Below are positions 14,456 to 24,668 of a stretch of DNA of 24,668 nt, piece by piece. Location: the IMG/VR virus record IMGVR_UViG_3300010052_000204, positions 1 to 24,668 of that record; one strand, written 5' to 3'. Position numbers and translations under genes: made by a program. A model generated the notes under the pieces. It was not told where the DNA came from. It was given only the letters and a program-made list of their open reading frames with translations, and made no database searches. Positions within the stretch are counted from its first letter, which is position 1. Every line of letters starts with the position of its first letter. The DNA is from a virus. Its lineage: Duplodnaviria > Caudoviricetes.

Positions 14456-15289
14456 ATGGGCAAGGCGACGAAGGTGAAGAAGCTGGGCTATGACGAGGCG
14501 GCGGCCGAGCTGCCGCAGCTCGATGCGCGGCTGTCGGCTGTGGCAGCCGAGTATTCGACCCAGTACGAGGCGGCACTCGTCGCCTATCGCCAGATCCAGC
14601 GGGTGATGGCGGAGAGCGGTGCGACGCTGGTGAATCTGCGGCAGCGGCGGGCCCGGTTGCTTGCCCTGGTGGAAGCCGGCCCTACCGATAGCTCGATCGA
14701 GCGCGTGGATGTGCAGAACCCGCTCAGCTCGGAGGAGCAGGTGCTGCACGAGATCGCCACCGATGGGGTCGGCAGGTCGGACCTGATCGAGGTCGACCGG
14801 AACATGGCGATCCTGATCGGCGGGCTGTTCCGGGTGAAGTCGCGCTCGGAGATTCAGACGCTGGCGGCGGCGCGGTATCGCGACGTGTACGAAACGGCGC
14901 AGCTGGGTGGCGCCAAGGCGATCGACTACTCGGTGACGCGGGTCGACAGTTCCGGTTCGGCGCAGGCGGCGATTGCCGACATGGGCGAGGATGCGCGCCG
15001 CCTTTACGGCGTGGCGGTGCGGGCGCTCGGGCCGTTCAAGTCGAGCCTGATCGAACGGGTGGTGTGCGACGGCATGAGCATCCGCGAGGTGGCGCGTCGG
15101 GTGGAGGGCAACGAAGGCGATGCGGCGCGCCAGCGGATCACCGGGCACCTGCTGCTGGCACTCGACGAGGCGGCCGAACTGCTCGGAGTGGGGCAGGGCA
15201 GGCGTCGCGGCAGGCTGCAGGGCTCGGGTGCGCAGGTGCATGTGGATTGGCGGGGCGAGGGGGCAGGCCAGCAGGCCAACGCGGCTTGA
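14456..15289 (+). CDS. Putative late-gene transcriptional regulator (Q-position, DUF6456-like, C-terminal HTH)
   Basis: Last early gene before the packaging module. AIDYSVTRVDSS and VVCDGMSIREVARR. Confidence 0.65.
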   Translation: MGKATKVKKLGYDEAAAELPQLDARLSAVAAEYSTQYEAALVAYRQIQRVMAESGATLVNLRQRRARLLALVEAGPTDSSIERVDVQNPLSSEEQVLHEIATDGVGRSDLIEVDRNMAILIGGLFRVKSRSEIQTLAAARYRDVYETAQLGGAKAIDYSVTRVDSSGSAQAAIADMGEDARRLYGVAVRALGPFKSSLIERVVCDGMSIREVARRVEGNEGDAARQRITGHLLLALDEAAELLGVGQGRRRGRLQGSGAQVHVDWRGEGAGQQANAA

Positions 15290-15314
15290 CGAATCAGGCC
15301 AATAAACGCATCGC
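15286..15314 (+). promoter_or_regulatory. Candidate late promoter
   Basis: TTGACG overlapping the regulator stop codon, then 17 nt to a weak CATCGC -10. A hairpin follows at about 15346-15372. Confidence 0.35.
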
Positions 15315-15389
15315 TAGTGCAGCTTGGCGAAGCACGCCCAGCGAGATACGCCCCGGCCCTGAGCTGGGGCGTTTGCATTTGGGGTGGCA

Positions 15390-15758
15390 ATGGGCAGGCT
15401 CAAGGCGATGCCGGCTGCTCTCGCCCCCCTCAAGCCCCGCCTTGGGTTTGCGCCTGGTGACGCCAAGGCGGCGGACAAGTCGAGGACGGTGATGGCGCCG
15501 TGGCGTGCCTGGTACAAGACAGAGCGCTGGGCTCGGCTGCGACACGAAGTGTTCCTGCGCGATCTCTATCGGTGTCAGCGGACTGGTGTGCTTTGCATCG
15601 GCAAGCATCCCGCTCCGAACAGCCCGGTGGCGAACCACAAGCGCCCGCACAAGGGCGACCCGGAACTGTTCTGGGACATCAACAACATCGAGACGGTGTC
15701 GAAGGAAGTGCACGACGGACTGATCCAGTCCGAAGAGCGCGCGCTGCCTCGCACATAG
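15390..15758 (+). CDS. Packaging-associated HNH endonuclease (HK97 gp74-like)
   Basis: WYKTERWARLR...RDLYRC...VANHKRPHKGDPELFWDINN...VH, located immediately before terS. Confidence 0.88.
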   Translation: MGRLKAMPAALAPLKPRLGFAPGDAKAADKSRTVMAPWRAWYKTERWARLRHEVFLRDLYRCQRTGVLCIGKHPAPNSPVANHKRPHKGDPELFWDINNIETVSKEVHDGLIQSEERALPRT

Positions 15759-15832
15759 GGGGGGCGGGTCAAAAGTCTGGGAGGCGGCGCTTTCCCGGAC
15801 CGGCATCTGCCTCACGCGGAGATTTTTTTCTG
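15759..15832. other. Probable cos region
   Basis: HNH-terS intergenic G-run, GTCAAAAGT, GGACCGGC...CTCACGCG and a T-run. This is the usual position and style for cos phages with an HNH. Confidence 0.55.
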
Positions 15833-16303
15833 ATGGGCGTGGATTTTGACCTGCTGGGTGATCCGATCCCTGAGGGGTTCGGGCGCCGCGGGCGGCCGGC
15901 GCATGTGCCGAGCGACGAAAAGCGTAGACTTGTCATACAGTTACTGGCGTTTGAGTGGTCGCCGGAGCGTATATCGGCGGCGCTGAGCATCACGCCGCCG
16001 ACTTTGCGGAAGCATTATTTTCGCGAGCTCCAGTTCAAGGCCGAGGCTCGCGCCCGCGTCGAGGCTCGGCTGCTGTCGTCGCTGATGAACGAGGCCGAGG
16101 CCGGCAACGTCTCGGCGGTCGACAAATACTTCAAGCGGCTCGACAAGCATGACCTGAAGCGCCTGGCTGCCGACGTGGCGAACCGCGGCGATGCGGACGG
16201 CGAGAAGGTAAAGCCGGGCAAGAAGCAGCTGCAGAAGGTGGCCGCGGCTGGCGTTGAAGGCATCTATGCGCCCCGCACCGGTCCGAAACGGCTCGATGGC
16301 TGA
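15833..16303 (+). CDS. terS: Terminase small subunit
   Basis: GRPAHVP...[23 protein letters not shown]; coupled to terL by TGATG. Confidence 0.8.
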
Positions 16304-18003
16304 TGTTCGCTGCGCCTGAGTGGTCGACCGCCTGCCCTGACTGGGCCGAGCGGATACTGCAGAAGCGGACGCTGATCCCGTGCGGTGCGCTGTTCCCTGC
16401 CCAAGCGGCCGACGCCCTGGCGGTATTCAAGTCGCTGCGCATCGTCGATGCTCCGGGCAAGCCGACGTTCGGCGAGGCCTGCGAACAGTGGGTGTTCGAC
16501 TTCGTCGAGGCCATCTTCGGTGCCTACGACGGCGACGGCCACCAGCTGATCCGGGAGTTCTTCTTGCTGATCAGCAAGAAGAACGCAAAATCGACGATCG
16601 CCGCCGGAATCATGATCACGGCGCTGATCGTCAACTGGCGCGACTACTCTGAACTGCTGATCCTGGCGCCGACCCTCGAGGTGGCAAACAACAGCTTCAA
16701 GCCGGCGGCGGCAATGGTCCGCGCCGACGCGCAGCTGGCCGAGCTGCTGCACATTCAGGATCACCTGAAACAGATCACCCACCGGGTGACCAACGCGACG
16801 CTGACGGTTGTGGCGGCGGAATCGGCCACGGTTGGCGGCAAGAAGGGTGCCTTCGTCCTGGTCGACGAGCTCTGGCTGTTCGGCGAGCGGCCGAATGCCG
16901 AGGCCATGCTGCAGGAAGCGACTGGCGGCCAGGCGTCACGCGACGAAGGGTTTGTCATCTATCTCTCGACCCAGAGCGACAAGGCGCCGGCGGGGATATT
17001 CAAGGCCAAACTCGAATACGCCCGTGCGGTTCGGGATGGCCGGATTCTCGACCGCGCGTTCCTCGCGGTGATCTTCGAGTTCCCGGCGCCGCTGGTGGCA
17101 AGCAAGTCGTACCTCAAGGCCGAATTCTTCTACGTCACGAACCCGAACCTCGGGCGCTCGGTGAATGCCGAGTGGCTTGAGCGCGAACTGCAAAAGGTGC
17201 GCGAGGCGGCGTCGGGGCTGCAGACATTTCTCGCCAAGCACCTCAACATCGAAATCACGCTCGGCCTGGCGGGTGACCGCTGGGCGGGGGCGGATTACTG
17301 GGAGATGGCGGCGCATCGCGAAGTGCGGACGCTGGCGGAGTTGCTGGCGGTTTGTGACGTGGCTGTCGTCGGTGGTGACGGCGGCGGCCTCGATGACTTG
17401 TTCGGGGCAGCGGTGATCGGGCGGCACAGGGTGACGCGCGAATGGATAGTTTGGGGGCACGCCTGGGCGCAGGACGATGTGTTCGAGCGCCGGAAGGATA
17501 TTGCACCGCGGCTTCTCGACTTCGAACGGGCCGGTGACCTGACGCGATGCAAATACACCACGCAGGATATCGAGGGCTTCGCCGACATTTGCGAGCAGGT
17601 GCGTGACGCGGGGCTGATGCCCGACGTCGGCGCGATCGGCCTCGACCCGGCAGGGGTGACGGCGCTCGTCGATGAGCTGGTCTCACGCGGGTTCACGATG
17701 GAGCAGATCGTGGCGGTGTCGCAGGGCTACCGGCTTGCGAGCGCGGTATGGGGTGCGGAGCGCAAGCTCAAAGACGGAACGCTGAAGCATTGCGGCCAAC
17801 CCATGATGGCGTGGTCTGTCGGTAACGCCAAAGTCGAGCAGAGGGGCAACGCCGTGCTGATCACGAAACAGGTGGCCGGCAAGGCCAAGATCGATCCGCT
17901 GATGGCAGCCCTAAACGGCGTGTCGCTGATGAGCCGGAATCCGGATGCTTCGAACGGTCGGGCCCTTAACCAGGCGATCCTTGAGCGCGGCGGGTTCGCC
18001 TGA
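16303..18003 (+). CDS. terL: Terminase large subunit
   Basis: Walker [10 protein letters not shown], Walker B VLVDE, YLST coupling motif, nuclease [10 protein letters not shown] and KIDPLMA. Confidence 0.96.
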
Positions 18004-19280
18004 TGGGGATCTGGGATCGGCTGTTCGGCCGCAAGTCGGCGGCGAGCGGACAGAGCCGCTTTTGGCTCGACCTGCTTGATACCGTCAACACCGTCGCCGG
18101 CATTCGGGTTACGCCGGACTCGGCGCCGAAGCAGTCGGCGGTGTGGGCTGCGATCAACGTGCGCTCGGAGGATATCGGCAAGCTGCCGTGCATCCTTTAC
18201 CGCCGGTTGCCGGATGGCAGCCGGGAGCGGGCAACTACGCACCCGCTGTATCGACTGATCGGCTCGCGGCCAAACACGCGACACACAGCATTCGAGTTTC
18301 GCCAGATGCTGCAGCTGCAGCTCGACGTGTACGGCAACGCCCTGGCAGTAAAGGAACTGTCCGGCACCGGGGACGTCACTGCGCTGTGGCCGGTGCCCTG
18401 GCCGAAAGTCGCCGTGCTGCAGTCGGAAGACGGCTACGAGCTGTTCTACCGCATCACGATGAAGAGCGGGCAGACCATGACGCTGCCGGCCGAGATGGTG
18501 CTGCACCTGCGCGGCAAGAGCTTCGACGGCGTGGTCGGAGTGTCGCCGATCACCTATCACGCCGAGACCATTGGCCTGGCGCTTGCCCAGGACCGTTACA
18601 CCGCCGCGCTGTTCGGCAACTCGGCGCGCCCCAGCGGCGCGCTGAAGGTGAAGCAGGTGCTGAGCAAGGAAGCCAGCGCGGCGCTCAGGTCCGACTGGGA
18701 GAGCAAGCTCAAGGGGCCGGAAAAGACCGGCTCGATGGTCGTGCTCGACGGGGAGATGGACTGGACGCCGTTCTCGATGACGCAGGACGATGCGCAGTAT
18801 GTCGAAAGCAAGGGCATCTCGAACGCCGATATCTTTCGCATCTACCGCATCCCGCCGCACAAGGCCGGCGATCTGACCCGCTCGACCAACAACAACATCG
18901 AGCACCAGGGCCTCGAGTACGTCACCGACTGCCTGATGCCGATCTGTGTCAACTGGGAGCAGGCATTGGCCCGCGACCTGCTGACCGAGGACGAACAGGG
19001 CGACTATTTCTTCGAGTTCCTGGTCGATGCGCTGCTGCGCGGAGACATCAAGTCCCGCTACGAGGCTTTCGCCATCGCCCGTTCCTGGGGCGCCATGTCG
19101 GCAAACGACTGGCGCGACAAGGAAAACATGAACCGCATCGCGAACGGGGACATCTACCTGCAGCCCCTCAACTACATCGAGGCCGGAACCGCTCCGGCCC
19201 CATCGGCCAGTACAGCCAAGGCGCTGCTGGCCTATGCGCAGCAGCTCGTCGCCCGAGAGGATGGCACCAATGAACCATGA
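18003..19280 (+). CDS. Portal protein, HK97 family
   Basis: HPLYRL...PN, GNA, G.SPI, FGNSARPSG, NNIEHQ, LLRGDIKSRYE. Confidence 0.96.
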   Translation: MGIWDRLFGRKSAASGQSRFWLDLLDTVNTVAGIRVTPDSAPKQSAVWAAINVRSEDIGKLPCILYRRLPDGSRERATTHPLYRLIGSRPNTRHTAFEFRQMLQLQLDVYGNALAVKELSGTGDVTALWPVPWPKVAVLQSEDGYELFYRITMKSGQTMTLPAEMVLHLRGKSFDGVVGVSPITYHAETIGLALAQDRYTAALFGNSARPSGALKVKQVLSKEASAALRSDWESKLKGPEKTGSMVVLDGEMDWTPFSMTQDDAQYVESKGISNADIFRIYRIPPHKAGDLTRSTNNNIEHQGLEYVTDCLMPICVNWEQALARDLLTEDEQGDYFFEFLVDALLRGDIKSRYEAFAIARSWGAMSANDWRDKENMNRIANGDIYLQPLNYIEAGTAPAPSASTAKALLAYAQQLVAREDGTNEP

Positions 19281-19965
19281 GGCTTTCTATGCCCCGCTCG
19301 AGGTGAAGTTTGCCGACGGCGGCACGCCTGGCGCGTTCGAGGGCTACGGCGCGGTGTTCGGCAATGTCGACGCCTATGGCGACGTGATCCAGAAGGGGGC
19401 GTTCAAGGAAACGCTGCGCGACTGGAACAAGTCGAAGAAGCTGCCGCCGATGCTGTCGCAGCATGGCGGCTGGATGATGAGCGACATGGACGCCATCCCC
19501 ATCGGGGTGTGGGAGGCCATGTCGGAGGACGACACCGGCCTCTATGTCAAGGGGCGGCTGATCAACCTCGACACCGAGGACGGCAAGAAGCTCTACGGCG
19601 CCATGAAGGAAGGGGCGCTCGACGGCATGTCGATCGGGTACCGCGCAAAGGAATTTGCGCTCGGCACCAAGCCCGACGAGCCCCGGCGCACACTGAAGAA
19701 GATCGACCTGTTCGAGGTCAGCGTGGTGACCTTCCCCGCAAACGGCAAGGCGCGTGTTGCGTCGGTAAAGACTGCCATCGGGCTTGCCGATCGCATGTCC
19801 GATGAAGACGGCCTCGAGCTGGCGCGGCATATCGCGGCCAAGCACGGCCTGGGGCTGTTCGCCCAGCATCGCATTGACGCCGTAGAACGTGCTGCCAAGG
19901 CGCAACGCCTCGCCGAACGCAAGCGGCTGACGGCATCCATTCTTAGCGTTGGCGCCCCGCGCTGA
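19270..19965 (+). CDS. Prohead protease, HK97 family
   Basis: FEGYGAVFGNVD, MLSQH, PIGVW, GMSIGY, EVSVVTFPAN. Confidence 0.95.
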   Translation: MNHEAFYAPLEVKFADGGTPGAFEGYGAVFGNVDAYGDVIQKGAFKETLRDWNKSKKLPPMLSQHGGWMMSDMDAIPIGVWEAMSEDDTGLYVKGRLINLDTEDGKKLYGAMKEGALDGMSIGYRAKEFALGTKPDEPRRTLKKIDLFEVSVVTFPANGKARVASVKTAIGLADRMSDEDGLELARHIAAKHGLGLFAQHRIDAVERAAKAQRLAERKRLTASILSVGAPR

Positions 19966-20032
19966 CGATCCCAGGGGAAGCCTGGCGACCGGGGCGCGCA
20001 TAGTGCGGCCCTCTCTCTTGAAAGAACCCAAG

Positions 20033-21412
20033 ATGAAGACTCTCGCCGAAATGCTGAAGGCGCGATCGCTCAAGGTCGACGCTTACACCGCCCATGCCGA
20101 GGCGATGATCAAGTCGCTCGACACCGACGCTGACATCGAGACCGGCACCGACGAGGCCAAGAAGGCCGAAGTCAAGACTCGCCAGGATGCCGACAGGAAG
20201 AAGTCGGCCGACCTGCTGAAGGAAATCGCCGACCTCGATGCCGTGATCGAGGCCAAGAAGAAGTCAGACGAGCTGAAGGCTTCGCAGGCCACGCCGGTCA
20301 GCGAGTCCGGCAAGTCGCTGGTGTCGGCGACGGCATATCGCACCGGCGCCCTGAAGGTGTTCAAGGGTGAAGGGGCGCAGAAGCGCGCGCTCGGCTTTGG
20401 GCATTTCGTGCTGGCATCGATGTTCGGCTCCGCCAAGTCGCAGCGCTGGTGCGACGAGAACGGCATCAGCGTCAAAGCGCATGCCGAGGGCGTCAACGTC
20501 ACCGGCGGCGTGTTCGTGCCGGAAGAGTTCAGCCAGGACATCATCGACCTGCGCGACACGTACGGCTACTTCCGCCGCATGTGCCAGGTGGTGCCGATGG
20601 GGCGCGACACGATCTCGATCCCGCGGCGCGTCGGTGGCCTGACCGCTTACGCCGTCGGCGAGGCGACTGCCATCACCGCTTCGGATACCAGCTGGGACAA
20701 CATCAAGCTGGTCGCCAACAAGTGGGGCGTGCTCACGCTGATGTCGTCCGAGCTGGATGAGGATGCGGTGATCAACTTCGGCGACATGCTGGCCGGCGAA
20801 ATCGCCTACGCCTTCGCGGTGGCGGAAGACACCGCCGGCTTCTCCGGCGACGGCTCGGCCACCTATCACGGCATCCGGGGCATCCTGCAGAAGTTCACCG
20901 ACGGCCTCGGTTCGGGCTCGACGCCTCTGGCTGGCGCCGTGGACGCGGCTTCCGGGCACGACACCTTCGCCGAGATCGACAGCGCCGACATCAACACCCT
21001 GATGGCGAAGCTGCCGCAGTATGTGTATCTGCGTGGCCAGCCCCGCTTCATGACCTCGCAAGTGGGCTGGGCAACGGTGTTCCAGCGCCTGACCCTCGGC
21101 GCGGGTGGCCTGACCAAGAGCGATATCACCGGCGCGATCCAATACTCCTACCTGGGTTTCCCGGTAGATATCCTGCCCTCGATGCCGACCTCGACCGGCG
21201 ACCTCTCCGACCTTCCGATGATCCTCTTCGGCGATGTAGGCATGGCGGTGGCCTTCGGCGATCGTCGCGGCATGACGCTCGCCCGATCGACGGAATACAA
21301 GTTTGCCGAGGACCAGATCGCCATCAAGGCGACCGAGCGCTTCGACATCAACGTGCACAGCCTGGGCAGCTCGACCGTGCCCGGCCCCCTCGTCGCGCTG
21401 ATGGGCGAGTAA
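20033..21412 (+). CDS. Major capsid protein, HK97 fold, with N-terminal delta (scaffold) domain
   Basis: Charged coiled-coil N-terminus, GGVFVPEE, SSELDED, ILFGD, ERFD. Confidence 0.95.
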   Translation: MKTLAEMLKARSLKVDAYTAHAEAMIKSLDTDADIETGTDEAKKAEVKTRQDADRKKSADLLKEIADLDAVIEAKKKSDELKASQATPVSESGKSLVSATAYRTGALKVFKGEGAQKRALGFGHFVLASMFGSAKSQRWCDENGISVKAHAEGVNVTGGVFVPEEFSQDIIDLRDTYGYFRRMCQVVPMGRDTISIPRRVGGLTAYAVGEATAITASDTSWDNIKLVANKWGVLTLMSSELDEDAVINFGDMLAGEIAYAFAVAEDTAGFSGDGSATYHGIRGILQKFTDGLGSGSTPLAGAVDAASGHDTFAEIDSADINTLMAKLPQYVYLRGQPRFMTSQVGWATVFQRLTLGAGGLTKSDITGAIQYSYLGFPVDILPSMPTSTGDLSDLPMILFGDVGMAVAFGDRRGMTLARSTEYKFAEDQIAIKATERFDINVHSLGSSTVPGPLVALMGE

Positions 21413-21421
21413 GCCTCCCCC

Positions 21422-21444
21422 GCTGCGCAGCCAAGCTGCGCAGC
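21422..21444 (+). repeat. Tandem palindrome GCTGCGCAGC-caa-GCTGCGCAGC (hairpin; possible weak terminator or mRNA stabiliser)
   Basis: Directly visible 9 nt after the capsid stop. No clean U-tract follows. Confidence 0.6.
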
Positions 21445-21480
21445 AAATCTTTCCCTCAACCCAGATCCCAGGAGGCTTTC

Positions 21481-21924
21481 ATGAAGCCCGCATCCCGCCT
21501 TGGCGTTGCAATCGCCTCGGCCTCCGTGACCAATGGCGCCACCGCGACCGCCACCGTTTTCGACACTTCGCCTCCCGGGCTCGCCCGGGCGAAGTTCGTA
21601 TCGATCGACCTGGTGACCACCACGGCCGACGTCGTCTCGAACAAGCCGCAGACGTTGAAGGTGCAGCACTCGAACACCACCGACGCGACCAACTTCGCCG
21701 ACATCACCGGCGCCGATATCGCGTCGTCGGCGCCGAATGCGTCGACCTCGGCGGCCAATCTCTACAAGTGGAACATCGACTGGATCGGCAAGCGCCGGTA
21801 CGGGCGCGTGCTGTTCAGCCCGCGCACCACGATGACGGTGTTTGCGACGGTGAACCACCACCTGCTCGACCAGTTGCCCAACTCGGCGACCGAGGCCGGC
21901 GTGCTGGCGCTCACCGAGATCTAA
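21481..21924 (+). CDS. Ser/Thr-rich putative capsid decoration/accessory protein
   Basis: Strong AGGAGG RBS directly after the capsid gene. Beta-rich pattern (LKVQHS...F.DI.GA...KRRY.R). 33 of 147 residues are S/T by hand count. Confidence 0.6.
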   Translation: MKPASRLGVAIASASVTNGATATATVFDTSPPGLARAKFVSIDLVTTTADVVSNKPQTLKVQHSNTTDATNFADITGADIASSAPNASTSAANLYKWNIDWIGKRRYGRVLFSPRTTMTVFATVNHHLLDQLPNSATEAGVLALTEI

Positions 21925-21929
21925 CCCCG

Positions 21930-22015
21930 TTCCCCGCCCGACAGCGGGGGGGCAAGTTCAGCGCTGAAGACGAGGGGGTGTCGGCCCCCTCGTCACCCCT
22001 CCCTCCCGACAGAGG
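21930..22015 (+). promoter_or_regulatory. Structured cis-regulatory RNA candidate: three hairpins with complementary loops, the last enclosing the RBS
   Basis: CCCCGC-ccgaca-GCGGGG; GACGAGGGGG-tgtcgg-CCCCCTCGTC; CCTC-ccgaca-GAGG, followed by 7 nt to the ATG. Confidence 0.65.
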
Positions 22016-22022
22016 CAAACGA

Positions 22023-23198
22023 ATGAAACTCGATCTTGGGGCCGGGCCCGTATCCCCGGAAGGCTTCATGCCGCGCGGCAACGTCAACGGCACGAGCATC
22101 TACCCGCTGCCCTTCGATGATGGCAGCGTGGAGGAAATCCGCGCGAGCCACGTGCTTGAGCATTTTTCGCATGCCGAAGTGCCGCAGGTGCTCGCCGACT
22201 GGTTTCGCGTGCTGACACCCGGTGGACGGATGCGCGTCGCGGTTCCCGATTTCGGGAAGATCGCAACCAACTATGTGATGGGCGTGCCGGAGAATACTGC
22301 CGGCTATGTCATGGGCGGGCAGATCGACGCCGCCGACTTCCACAAGACGATCTTCGACCGGGAGACGTTGCGCCAGGCGCTTGCCACAGCCGGCCTGATC
22401 GCGCTCGAGCAGTGGACCTCGGAACTGCCGAACGACTGCGCGGCGTTGCCGGTGTCGCTCAACTGGGGTGGGCGCAAGCCGGTGCGTGACCGGCCGTCGA
22501 TCAAGGCGGTGATGACAACGCCGCGGCTTGGCTTCAACGACATGTGGAATGCCACTGTCGCCGCGTTGCCTCGCTTCGGCATCGAGCTGACCAATGTCGG
22601 CGGGGCGTTCTGGGATCAGTCGCTGACGCTGGTGCTCGAACGAGCACTGGACGAGGGCGCGGAGTACATCCTGACGCTGGACTATGACAGCGTGTTCTCG
22701 CCGGGGCATTTGGCGAGGCTCATCGAGTTGGTGATGCTTCATCCAGAGGCCGACGCCATTGCGCCACTGCAGGCAAGCCGACACGGCGGAAACCCGCTGT
22801 TCGGTTTGACTTCGGCGACCGACACTGTGTCCGACGACGGCGCGATCGCCGTTGTCGATCGCGAGCAGTTCGCCGCCGACCTGTTGCCGGTACGGCATGC
22901 GCATTTCGGCCTGACCCTGATCAAGGCCGAAGCGCTCAGGGCCATGCCGCGCCCATGGTTCCTCGGCGTGCCCAATGCCGAGGGGCGCTGGGACGAAGGC
23001 AAGACGGACCCCGACATCTACTTCTGGCGCCAGTGGGAGCGCGAAGGCCGCACGGCGTTCGTGGCGCCGAAGGTATCGATCGGTCACCTCGAGCTGATGG
23101 TTCGCTGGATGGACGACGGCATGCAGCCCATGTGGCAGGCCGCGCGCGACTGGGAAACAACCAAGAAAGCGCCAGCCGGCGCGTGGAACGGAGCGTGA
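22023..23198 (+). CDS. Class I SAM-dependent methyltransferase fused to a GT-A fold glycosyltransferase
   Basis: MKLDLGAG, LPFDDGSVEEIRASHVLEH and RVLTPGG..RVAVPD (Methyltransf_11-like). EYILTLDYD (DxD), HFGLTLIK, PRPWF, DPDIYF and SIGH (GT2-like). Confidence 0.87.
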   Translation: MKLDLGAGPVSPEGFMPRGNVNGTSIYPLPFDDGSVEEIRASHVLEHFSHAEVPQVLADWFRVLTPGGRMRVAVPDFGKIATNYVMGVPENTAGYVMGGQIDAADFHKTIFDRETLRQALATAGLIALEQWTSELPNDCAALPVSLNWGGRKPVRDRPSIKAVMTTPRLGFNDMWNATVAALPRFGIELTNVGGAFWDQSLTLVLERALDEGAEYILTLDYDSVFSPGHLARLIELVMLHPEADAIAPLQASRHGGNPLFGLTSATDTVSDDGAIAVVDREQFAADLLPVRHAHFGLTLIKAEALRAMPRPWFLGVPNAEGRWDEGKTDPDIYFWRQWEREGRTAFVAPKVSIGHLELMVRWMDDGMQPMWQAARDWETTKKAPAGAWNGA

Positions 23199-23199
23199 G

Positions 23200-23409
23200 A
23201 TGACAGGCCTTGTGAAGGTCGAAGTGATCCGGGCCTTTCAGGATCATCGCGTCGGTGACGTGATCACGGTGCAGCCGAACCAGGTGCAGGCCCTGACGGC
23301 GATGAACCTGATCAAGGCAGCGCCCGGCGACGATTTGGTGACCGAAACGCAGCCCGCCGCTGGCGCGGCCGAGCCTGTGGCACAAAAGAAGCCGAAGGCA
23401 TCGCGATGA
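23200..23409 (+). CDS. Small head-region protein (69 aa)
   Basis: GGAG RBS; short domain with a basic tail, typical before the connector gene. Confidence 0.7.
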   Translation: MTGLVKVEVIRAFQDHRVGDVITVQPNQVQALTAMNLIKAAPGDDLVTETQPAAGAAEPVAQKKPKASR

Positions 23410-23993
23410 GCTTTCGTCCGACGCGCACCGTCGCCCCGGCCGCTGATCTGCTCGATCTGGCGACGGTAAAGACGCATCTGCGTGTGGACGGCACAGACGA
23501 AGATGCGCTGATCAGTGCGCTGATCGGCGCCGTCACCGCGCACCTCGACGGCTATGCTGGCATTCTTGGTCGCTGCCTGATCAACCAGACCTGGGTGATG
23601 CTGGAAGATGAGTTCGAGGCCAGCATCGACCTGCCCTTCCCCGATGTGTCGTCGGTTACGCTGCAGTACTACGATGCCGCCAACACGCTGCAGACCGTTG
23701 CGTCAGGCAACTACCAGGTGCTCGAGCGCGATACCGGCAGCGTGATCGAACTCTACTCCAACTACACGACGCCAGCTGTCTATGCCTACCGCGAGGACGT
23801 GGTGAAGGTGACGCTGATCGCCGGATACGGCACGGCGGCCTCGGACGTGCCGGCGAGCATCCTCGCCGCGGCGCTGCTGCTGGTCGGCCATTGGTTCGAA
23901 AACCGCGAGGCCGTGAACATCGGCAACATCACGAGCGAGCTGCCGCTGGCGGTGCGTGCGCTGCTTGCCCCGTACTCCCTCAAAACCGTCTGA
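23406..23993 (+). CDS. Head-tail connector (HK97 gp6-like / phiE125 gp8 type)
   Basis: LATVKTHLRVD...EDALI, LINQTW, AGYG, LLLVGHWFENREAV. Confidence 0.92.
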   Translation: MSFRPTRTVAPAADLLDLATVKTHLRVDGTDEDALISALIGAVTAHLDGYAGILGRCLINQTWVMLEDEFEASIDLPFPDVSSVTLQYYDAANTLQTVASGNYQVLERDTGSVIELYSNYTTPAVYAYREDVVKVTLIAGYGTAASDVPASILAAALLLVGHWFENREAVNIGNITSELPLAVRALLAPYSLKTV

Positions 23994-24004
23994 GGTAACT
24001 GATC

Positions 24005-24307
24005 ATGGCGACACTCTACATTGCCGAGTTTGCCGGCCTGGCCGCTTCGCAGGGACCGCTGCCGGCGCCGCTGGTTCAGTTGCCGCCCGTGGCAGAGCAG
24101 ACGGTGACGATCGGCACCGAACAGGACTCGGCGGCGTTCAGTGCGAACACCCGCATCATCCGGGTGCACGCCGACGCGGTCTGCTCGATCAAGGCTGGTT
24201 CGGGTAACCCGGCCGCCGCGACAACGAATATGCGGCTCAACGCCGGGCAGACGGAGTATTTCGCCGTCAATCCCGGCGACAAGCTGTCTGTGATCTCGAA
24301 CACGTAA
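24005..24307 (+). CDS. Small beta-rich virion protein (possible head-spike base)
   Basis: GAGG RBS; 100-aa beta-strand pattern; sits between the connector and a fibre-like gene. Confidence 0.55.
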   Translation: MATLYIAEFAGLAASQGPLPAPLVQLPPVAEQTVTIGTEQDSAAFSANTRIIRVHADAVCSIKAGSGNPAAATTNMRLNAGQTEYFAVNPGDKLSVISNT

Positions 24308-24317
24308 GGCGGCTGGC

Positions 24318-24668
24318 GTGGGTATCGGTCTGGGGCAGCTCGGCGGGCTTGGGCGACTGGGCCTCCCCACACTTGAGGGCGTGGGGGCCTGGGGTGAGGC
24401 GCAACTCACCTCCTATCTCGCTTCGCTGTCCGACGGGTTCTACTACGACACCACCAAGCTCGACCGTTTCTTCCAGGAGAGCGTCGGACCCACACTGGCA
24501 GATGATGTAGGTGAGCTAGTCGGCCTTGCTTTGGATCAAGCTACGTGGGGCGGTAAGACGCTGGGGCAAATCGTTGCCGAAGCAACTGAGCTTGTTCTCA
24601 ACGGAACGTTCGACACCGATCTTGCAAATTGGACCGATGCAAACACGGGTACCGGCACGAGCGTCTTC
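24318..24668 (+). CDS. Partial putative head fibre/carbohydrate-binding virion protein (runs off the window; not in the ORF track)
   Basis: Open frame MGIGLGQLGGLGRLGL...DGFYYD...FFQES...VGELVGLALD...ELVLNGTFDTDLANW. Confidence 0.65.
   Translation, partial: MGIGLGQLGGLGRLGLPTLEGVGAWGEAQLTSYLASLSDGFYYDTTKLDRFFQESVGPTLADDVGELVGLALDQATWGGKTLGQIVAEATELVLNGTFDTDLANWTDANTGTGTSVF

Follow-up and report, generated by a model that had tools for sequence, protein, structure and literature searches.

The window analyzed here (the whole 24,668-nt stretch of DNA) is a complete 24.7-kb virus record with an HK97-like head module, whose genes run in the order terminase, portal, protease, capsid, p147, MTase-GT, and gp6-like adaptor. 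Between p147 and MTase-GT lies an element with four parts, H1, P, H2, and H3. The loops of H1 and H3 (L1 and L3) carry the same hexamer, the loop of H2 (L2) carries its complement, and H3 hides the Shine-Dalgarno (SD) sequence of MTase-GT (Table 1). These hairpins, loops, the palindrome, and the SD had been described in a first-pass annotation made from the letters of the window, and all were found where it had placed them.

Table 1. Features of the p147/MTase-GT junction and the surrounding head module, in window coordinates.
Feature	Position	Strand	Description
HK97-type major capsid protein	20033..21412	+	Pfam Phage_capsid E 5e-41; phrog_10
p147, upstream gene	21481..21924	+	Jelly-roll protein; phrog_5707 (function unknown); predicted model pLDDT 85
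Upstream stop codon TAA	21922-21924	+	End of p147 gene
Element span	21930..22022	+	Folded RNA of ~95 nt with four parts: H1, palindrome P, H2, H3
H1 hairpin	21932..21949	+	6 bp, extendable to 8 pairs; loop L1 CCGACA at 21938-21943
P element	21957..21968	+	Perfect 12-nt palindrome; predicted hairpin +0.2, duplex -19.3 kcal/mol
H2 long hairpin	21969..21994	+	10 bp; loop L2 UGUCGG at 21979-21984, the sole donor loop; predicted -22.7 kcal/mol
H3 anti-SD/SD hairpin	22002..22015	+	4 bp; loop L3 CCGACA at 22006-22011; predicted -3.4 kcal/mol
Shine-Dalgarno GAGG	22012-22015	+	3´ strand of H3
Downstream start codon ATG	22023	+	MTase-GT gene
MTase-GT, downstream gene	22023..23198	+	Class I SAM methyltransferase domain fused to GT-A-fold glycosyltransferase-like domain
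gp6-like head-tail adaptor	23406..23993	+	Context gene

The best structural match of the p147 model (VIA) was YomS (Z 10.1), followed among capsid chains by a 140-aa chain of the jellyroll-cemented capsid of a Bordetella phage (3j4u; Z 8.5, rmsd 3.7, 117 residues aligned, 22% identity) and a chain of the phage 7-7-1 capsid (Z 8.1); unrelated jelly rolls thus match as well as capsid chains do. From its modeled fold and its place behind the capsid gene, p147 is likely a capsid cement or decoration protein. The earlier label for MTase-GT agrees with a Pfam Methyltransf_11 match at residues 25-70 and with GT-A matches for the rest of the protein (predicted model pLDDT 91.8; best Foldseek matches COLGALT1, LH3, STIV A197, and Mnn9). 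We found 1420 homologues, none of them full-length in the cultured-phage collection. In head modules, MTase-GT genes lie next to a jelly-roll capsid-associated gene in the window (22023-23198) and in L025, L037, L038, L079, and L290, and they are frequently accompanied by a GDP-mannose-dehydratase-like gene. Together, these modules suggest phage-encoded glycosylation and methylation of the capsid. The gap between the capsid gene and p147 holds a GC-rich hairpin (21420-21446) with near-identical arms, each nearly self-complementary, and no U-tract.

Of 20,000 dinucleotide shuffles of the spacer, none reproduced the three-loop pattern. The stability of the region taken alone is unremarkable (z -1.25; 24 of 200 shuffles as good), and in the ViennaRNA minimum-energy fold of 21925-22025, pairing between a G-run and a C-run replaces H1 and H3. 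Because single-sequence folding does not yield these two hairpins, their support is the comparative evidence given below. By a covariance model, the window has a single copy of the element (69.5 bits), and the runner-up is the same site on the reverse strand (20.9 bits). A scan for σ70-like promoters, which is weak for alphaproteobacterial phages, found none on either strand of 15000-24668. No RNA dataset was listed among the sequencing runs holding the element; one run, probably of DNA, gave a 241-nt contig spanning it, which carries no information on expression.

Protein-anchored and pattern scans yielded 93 instances of the element, 86 of them at <85% identity. The closest locus is L001 (protein identity 51%), which keeps the loops and palindrome but has different stems. 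In an alignment of 69 of the instances (A3), 96% of stem cells are paired and two-sided changes occur at 21 of the 26 pairs, including 5/5 in H1, 11/11 in H2, and 4/4 in H3, such that all three stems covary. None of 500 shuffles reached this pairing level, and slid controls gave 40-51%; kinship may inflate the shuffle tests, yet H2 varies on both sides at every position. A census of 76 unique matches collected without a stem filter counted 529 Watson-Crick, 57 G-U, 1 A-C, and 21 other pairs, and the excess of G-U over A-C indicates that it is the sense-strand RNA that pairs. H2 has 9-14 bp, with a mode of 12 (90 candidates from the loop-agnostic scan below), and H1 is absent from 3 of the 86 representatives. 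H3 is weak (-1.8 to -6.8 kcal/mol, median about -3; predicted to form at P>0.5 in 46/86) and may therefore repress little unless it is stabilized. Beyond the complementary loops and the SD, no conserved unpaired bases that could form a pocket were seen in these instances. On this comparative evidence, the element is a real, conserved, and structurally well-supported RNA, for which we propose a function below.

The first-pass annotation had asked whether the loop complementarity is conserved in homologues. Among the 219 unique viral matches listed, out of an estimated 150 and 190 in two scans, L2 and L3 are complementary in 51/51 that bear the H2 stem and in 19/168 that do not, the two central bases of each loop having been left free in the pattern. 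With the canonical L3 excluded, the metagenome matches gave 4/4 (one doubtful) with the stem and 5/63 without it. A loop-agnostic scan of 1.6 Mb returned 90 candidates with 6/6 complementary positions, 0 with 5/6, and 171 with four or fewer; many of these loci had been gathered with fixed loops, and the counts speak for a clean class, not for its frequency. One code dominates (81/90), and the loop ends CC..CA and UG..GG are nearly invariant. The non-canonical elements (n=12) use five other codes, CCCACA, CCACCA, CCCCCA, CCGCCA, and CCGGCA; judging by nearest-neighbor identities, the code probably changed independently four or five times among them, not twelve. L2:L3 complementarity is 6/6 in 11 of these 12, with one mismatch in L639. 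L1, which was part of no pattern used to find these variants, tracks the L2 code as well. With wobble allowed, L1:L2 pairing is full in 11 of the 12 (two on weak 3-bp stems), and by a strict test L1 carries the code of its own element in 7/12 (other codes, 4/180), compared with 58/74 for canonical elements (other codes, 20/1110). L1 is looser than L3, with only 3-5 bases paired in 14/83. Since L1 and L3 both follow L2 across codes, both pairings are under selection. This three-way covariation upholds the earlier proposal of mutually exclusive loop pairings over a hairpin that hides the SD: L2 can hold one partner at a time, and L1 is likely a tethered inhibitor of L2.

Some elements depart from the compact arrangement. 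At four loci (L031, L070, L076, and L092), H3 lies 140-300 nt from the donor, and in L031, L033, and L034 (2350-2470) a repeat of ~36 nt occurs in three tandem copies between H2 and H3. Three genomes (G001, G002, and G068) have acceptor-only units whose code is identical to that of the single donor found; in G001, the rare code CCGCCA is common to units 18.7 kb apart. Two phages (G006 and G013) have two complete elements each, with codes that differ, as was expected for G013, which was chosen for its rare code. In a census of 50 records, 47 matched, of which 46 have one real H3 and one has a real second H3. A fourth CCGA site recurs at the start codon (15/71 elements versus 4/84 control starts, p 0.003, uncorrected for kinship), which may indicate a repressive role for L2. 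In the tail-tube/chaperone spacer of EBPR siphovirus 3 (L697 1480-1620, JF412298.1), the loops are apparently swapped, with UGUCGG on a short hairpin and CCGACA on an 11-bp hairpin, followed by a degenerate SD hairpin.

The palindrome had been noted as separating hairpins 1 and 2. Its position stands, but P is more than a separator: it is a conserved part whose self-complementarity is kept as its sequence varies. With a pattern that did not include the palindrome, a perfect palindrome of at least 10 nt was found directly before H2 in 50/76 (background 1.7%), and a self-complementary center between 3-bp stems around four bases in 41/69 (background 7.1%, 296/4179). Among the 86 representatives, part of which came from patterns fixing one palindrome, 67 are perfect through the center and 3 contain G-U; the remaining 16 were read as loops, in several cases by error. 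There are 45 P sequences of 10-18 nt with nine different centers. The central pairs are 96% and 89% G+C and the outer pairs 42-60%, and this GC-rich center with poorer flanks makes for a weak hairpin and a strong duplex (predicted medians -0.7 and -20.1 kcal/mol). The predicted gain from dimerization has a median of -14.2 kcal/mol, compared with -6.3 when P is shuffled, and is -18.5 in the window. As far as predicted energies go, this design is unneeded by a hairpin and needed by a homodimer, which suggests that these mRNAs form homodimers.

In about 7 of the 86 (L079, L242, L252, L266, L281, L289, and L301), a true loop replaces the palindrome, so that a stable stem capped by an ordinary loop (UUCG, GNRA, or UCCG) takes the same position; thus, dimers are not obligatory. 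Four loci (L237, L245, L284, and L296) have both an ordinary-loop hairpin and the palindrome. Extra hairpins sit between H1 and P, with H1 staying by the stop codon and P by H2. Predicted P length and H2 length are not correlated (rho -0.14, p 0.25). What is conserved at P is a helix, in most phages one that is best formed between two molecules.

The first-pass annotation had tied the switch to the MTase-GT enzyme and its putative substrate. This tie did not hold, as most MTase-GT homologues are without the element and genes unrelated to MTase-GT have it before them. Among the 80 best MTase-GT loci, it lies directly before the gene in 26 by hand count (16 after removal of duplicates). Of the 89 downstream proteins, we scanned the 44 that are neither plainly MTase-GT nor near-duplicates: 23 are tail assembly chaperones, one is a nucleotide-sugar epimerase, five belong to unknown families, and 15 had no match. 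The scanned upstream ORFs (39 of 84, some of them wrong-frame picks) comprise 15 from tail-protein families, one HNH, one of the p147 family, and 22 without a match. The element thus tracks a position, behind a gene for a high-copy virion protein and ahead of a gene for a non-virion helper, and not an enzyme. At L230 (phrog_7203), L231, L233, L234, L244, and L262, it precedes other non-tail genes or genes of unknown family, and what lies just before H1 in L231 and L234 is not a stop codon but a hairpin resembling a terminator. In OP596612.1 (L698 1986-2435), a homologue of the tail assembly chaperones is encoded before the tape measure gene; its annotation, branched-chain amino acid ABC transporter, is probably mistaken.

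The slot before MTase-GT is filled in other ways as well. The int-alpA RNA occupies it in 6 of 20 scanned loci (at least five among the 80 best); L045, L049, L050, L095, L028, and L101 have it in head modules, far from integrase or alpA, and look-alikes occur in L019 (under threshold), L020, L064, and L071. Five of the 80 loci have a gap of less than ~30 nt. In a third class of spacer (L004, L005, L093, L060, L067, L081, and L082), the upstream stop is followed directly by a pyrimidine-rich anti-SD, whose partner, a purine-rich SD, lies on the far side of a long inner hairpin; the L004 and L093 spacers have no match in Rfam.

The host context seen is alphaproteobacterial, with elements in a Bradyrhizobium MAG and a Caulobacteraceae MAG. 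Among 60 genomes of the genus of the former, one more element was found, at a tail-tube/chaperone junction. An order-level pattern search of 401 genomes gave three matches, none with complementary loops, but this search is insensitive, as it overlooked the element of G071 itself. Among cultured phages, blastn with the element and tblastn with MTase-GT yielded nothing useful: a stretch shared with E. coli phage NBD2 is merely RBS-like, and Bradyrhizobium phage ppBdUSDA122-1 has the chaperone behind a 44-nt spacer that lacks the element. We dropped as chance L011, L015, L261, L268, L592, the plus-strand match in L279, the second match in G049, and most of the 67 metagenome pattern matches. A palindrome-anchored scan with a free loop center gave mostly chance matches, plus the known variant L051/L208.

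The geometry of the element bears on how it might work. As the first-pass annotation had noted for the window, H1 is near the upstream stop, with a gap of 0-12 nt in 65/83 elements and a mode of 5-6. H1 may thus lie at the edge of the footprint of a terminating ribosome, although compact genomes could yield equal spacing. L3 starts 5-7 nt past H2 in 61/90, and the distance from the start of L1 to the start of P is mostly 16-19 nt. In A-form dimensions, a kiss with both stems intact measures ~22 bp, which a linker of 1-3 nt cannot close. By this reckoning, the 12-bp H2 and 1-3 nt linker of most homologues preclude a cis kiss between L2 and L3 with H3 intact, and the window, with its 10-bp H2 and 7-nt linker, is borderline. 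The earlier suggestion that loop 2 pairs with loop 1 or loop 3 therefore stands for the pairings themselves and, in most homologues, falls for a cis kiss that leaves H3 in place. L2:L3 pairing would then be either a pseudoknot that melts H3 or an interaction in trans. A pseudoknot with H3 melted appears to fit the geometry, and an 11-bp stem 1 is known from the IBV pseudoknot, as outlined in the relevant part of PMC2836554. L1 could reach L2 in cis through its longer linker, as could the H1 of a partner in a P duplex, in a domain swap.

On comparative evidence, the element likely switches translation of the next gene without a ligand, and we think it quite probable that it acts as a translational switch in one polarity or the other. 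In the model we favor, to which we give a probability of about 0.5, L1 holds L2, a ribosome frees L2, and the pseudoknot opens the SD hairpin. In the low state, L1 would kiss L2, and the weak SD would stay shut inside H3. On termination at the upstream stop, ~5-6 nt ahead of H1, the ribosome would disturb H1 and release L2, and an H-type L2:L3 pseudoknot (12-bp stem 1, 5-7 nt connector) would melt H3 and expose the SD. A formed P helix would keep H1 beside the base of H2 and so favor the low state. In most phages, where this helix is good only between two mRNAs, more late mRNA would lower the switch; in the tetraloop variants, the P helix would always be formed, leaving a response to the ribosome alone. 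The purpose is likely to couple the non-virion helpers (tail chaperone, MTase-GT, and sugar epimerase) to the high-copy virion proteins encoded before them while making them at a stepped-down level. It is a more tentative idea, and one on which we would not bet, that these mRNAs count their own copies with neither protein nor ligand, helper translation falling as L2 is captured by the partner in a palindrome-annealed, domain-swapped dimer. One feature sits uneasily with the favored model: all six bases of L3 match L2, which would suit a kiss better than a pseudoknot, in which one base needs to be unpaired.

That full complementarity, together with the weakness of H3 alone, could instead point to the opposite polarity, in which L2 kisses L3 between mRNAs or over a long range, H3 stays intact, the SD is locked, and the monomer is kept on by L1, acting as a decoy in cis. 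Partners would be gathered by the palindrome, such that high levels of the mRNA shut the gene off. We consider this unlikely, though it draws on several observations: the steric improbability of a cis kiss in compact elements, the CCGA site at the start codon, the distant H3 hairpins and acceptor-only units that share the code of a donor, and the different codes where two complete elements share a phage. The orphan acceptors, however, may be decayed duplicates (in G001 and G068, a long hairpin survives whose loop is not of the donor type), a real second H3 turned up in just one record of the census, and the code difference in G013 was built into its choice. P and H2 lengths, as predicted, do not vary together, and the tetraloop variants retain all three loops without a palindrome. 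These variants, the cis geometry, and the ColIb-P9 precedent discussed below are why we favor activation by L2:L3. Both polarities predict lower expression from dimers.

Three further explanations seem less probable. The primary role could be in the fate or assembly of the mRNA, as a barrier to 3´ exonucleases, an RNase III site on a dimer rod of ~36 bp, or a network of mRNAs, with control of the RBS secondary. REP-like stabilization and the length requirements of RNase III lie behind this idea, and a strong H2 directly behind high-copy genes, the dimer gain that shrinks when P is shuffled, and the oligomers permitted by one donor, two acceptors, and a palindrome all speak for it. We find it improbable nonetheless, given that nearly every instance has its SD within a covarying helix and that the loop of this helix tracks L2, neither of which a barrier requires, and that no U-tract after a GC-rich stem, as in an intrinsic terminator, was found at the element. 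More doubtful still is a switch set by a protein, of phage or host, that recognizes the hexamer loops or the palindrome as RNA or DNA. The near-invariant loop ends and dominant code speak for it, but the centers of all three loops change in step, the palindrome varies widely in sequence and length, the G-U bias indicates RNA pairing, and the flanking genes have no product in common. It is very improbable that the element is a riboswitch sensing SAM, SAH, or an NDP-sugar in connection with MTase-GT, ligand sensing being an alternative raised in the first-pass annotation. Two types of downstream gene do encode SAM or nucleotide-sugar enzymes, but the element is not tied to MTase-GT and its contexts are mixed, with tail assembly chaperones prevailing among the other scanned downstream proteins and no single pathway shared. 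It also lacks conserved pocket bases, and in other phages the slot is held by int-alpA or by almost no spacer.

Protein ratios within a phage late transcript are usually ascribed to terminators, frameshifts, and overlapping codons. Here, a compact RNA device sits at tail-tube/chaperone and cement/modifier junctions, and its natural compensatory codes already specify the mutants with which to probe it. With at least six natural loop codes, the 95-nt switch is also a possible programmable part. If dimer sensing is real, this would be a new kind of switch: were the dimer input to hold, the mRNA would regulate its own translation by homodimerization, for which we found no prokaryotic example in the literature searched. 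If copies are indeed counted in this way, the loop codes would be addresses, one donor could govern RBS hairpins at a distance of kilobases, and a phage with two switches would keep them orthogonal.

The element resembles several known RNAs in part. As the first-pass annotation had supposed, it fits no Rfam family: Rfam 15 gave 0 matches in the window at the gathering thresholds (the best overlapping hits by E-value scored 13 and 17 bits against thresholds of 50 and 60.5) and 0 in 16 further element loci or in the element-bearing loci among 20 scanned sources. It shares with the int-alpA RNA (RF02996) the slot before MTase-GT homologues and the nature of a phage cis-RNA by the RBS; unlike it, int-alpA is a three-way junction with other conserved bases, and it gave no match on the element-bearing loci scanned. 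Short-hairpin loop-loop contacts and natural RNA multimers are known from guanidine-II (mini-ykkC), phi29 pRNA, ARRPOF/OLE/ROOL/GOLLD, manA, and EGFOA, whereas our element combines complementary hexamer loops with its own SD in an mRNA, has no ligand pocket, and has no Rfam match. Its palindrome has a GC-rich self-complementary core (GCGC, CGCG, or G-U forms such as GUGC) capable of homodimer formation, as do the HIV-1 DIS, the oskar 3´ UTR, and the hatchet ribozyme in the account given in the relevant sections of PMC7357161. In those RNAs the palindrome is a stem-borne loop, whereas here the entire 10-18 nt segment is palindromic and has an RBS switch as its neighbor in the mRNA of a bacterial phage; among the RNAs named in the same sections, there is no prokaryotic mRNA that controls its own translation by dimerizing. 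A full-text literature search did not turn up a description of the element in the portions returned, including those of PMC5737381, PMC12990946, and bioRxiv 10.64898/2026.07.01.735769. It may be one of the unnamed IMG/VR candidates of Fremin 2023 (PMC10690425), although supplement files 3-6 give no motif strings and six of 12 chaperone- or enzyme-linked candidates, looked up for comparison, are unlike it in length or host.

The closest likeness is to repZ/Inc of the IncI-alpha plasmid ColIb-P9 (also IncB pMU720 and IncL/M). According to the repZ passages of the cited papers, a loop there pairs with bases just before the hidden SD and induces translation, an RNA with the same bases blocks this pairing (PMC4705826, PMC10724649), and termination of upstream translation is the trigger (PMC4705826). 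Both systems place the SD in a hairpin with a sequence complementary to a loop just 5´ of it, and both have a competitor that carries the sequence of the pseudoknot partner, here L1 in cis. They differ in that the likely inhibitor here would belong to the mRNA itself, as a hairpin, and there is a separate antisense RNA with its own promoter; that the stop codon lies ~80 nt before H3, by H1, here and is that of a leader peptide inside the SD hairpin there; and that the targets are phage late genes (chaperones and enzymes) here and a rep gene there. The pseudoknot proposed here is also local (5-7 nt connector), with a palindrome present and no Rfam match. With a proposed repZ-like way of working but two defining repZ features missing, the element represents a new family.
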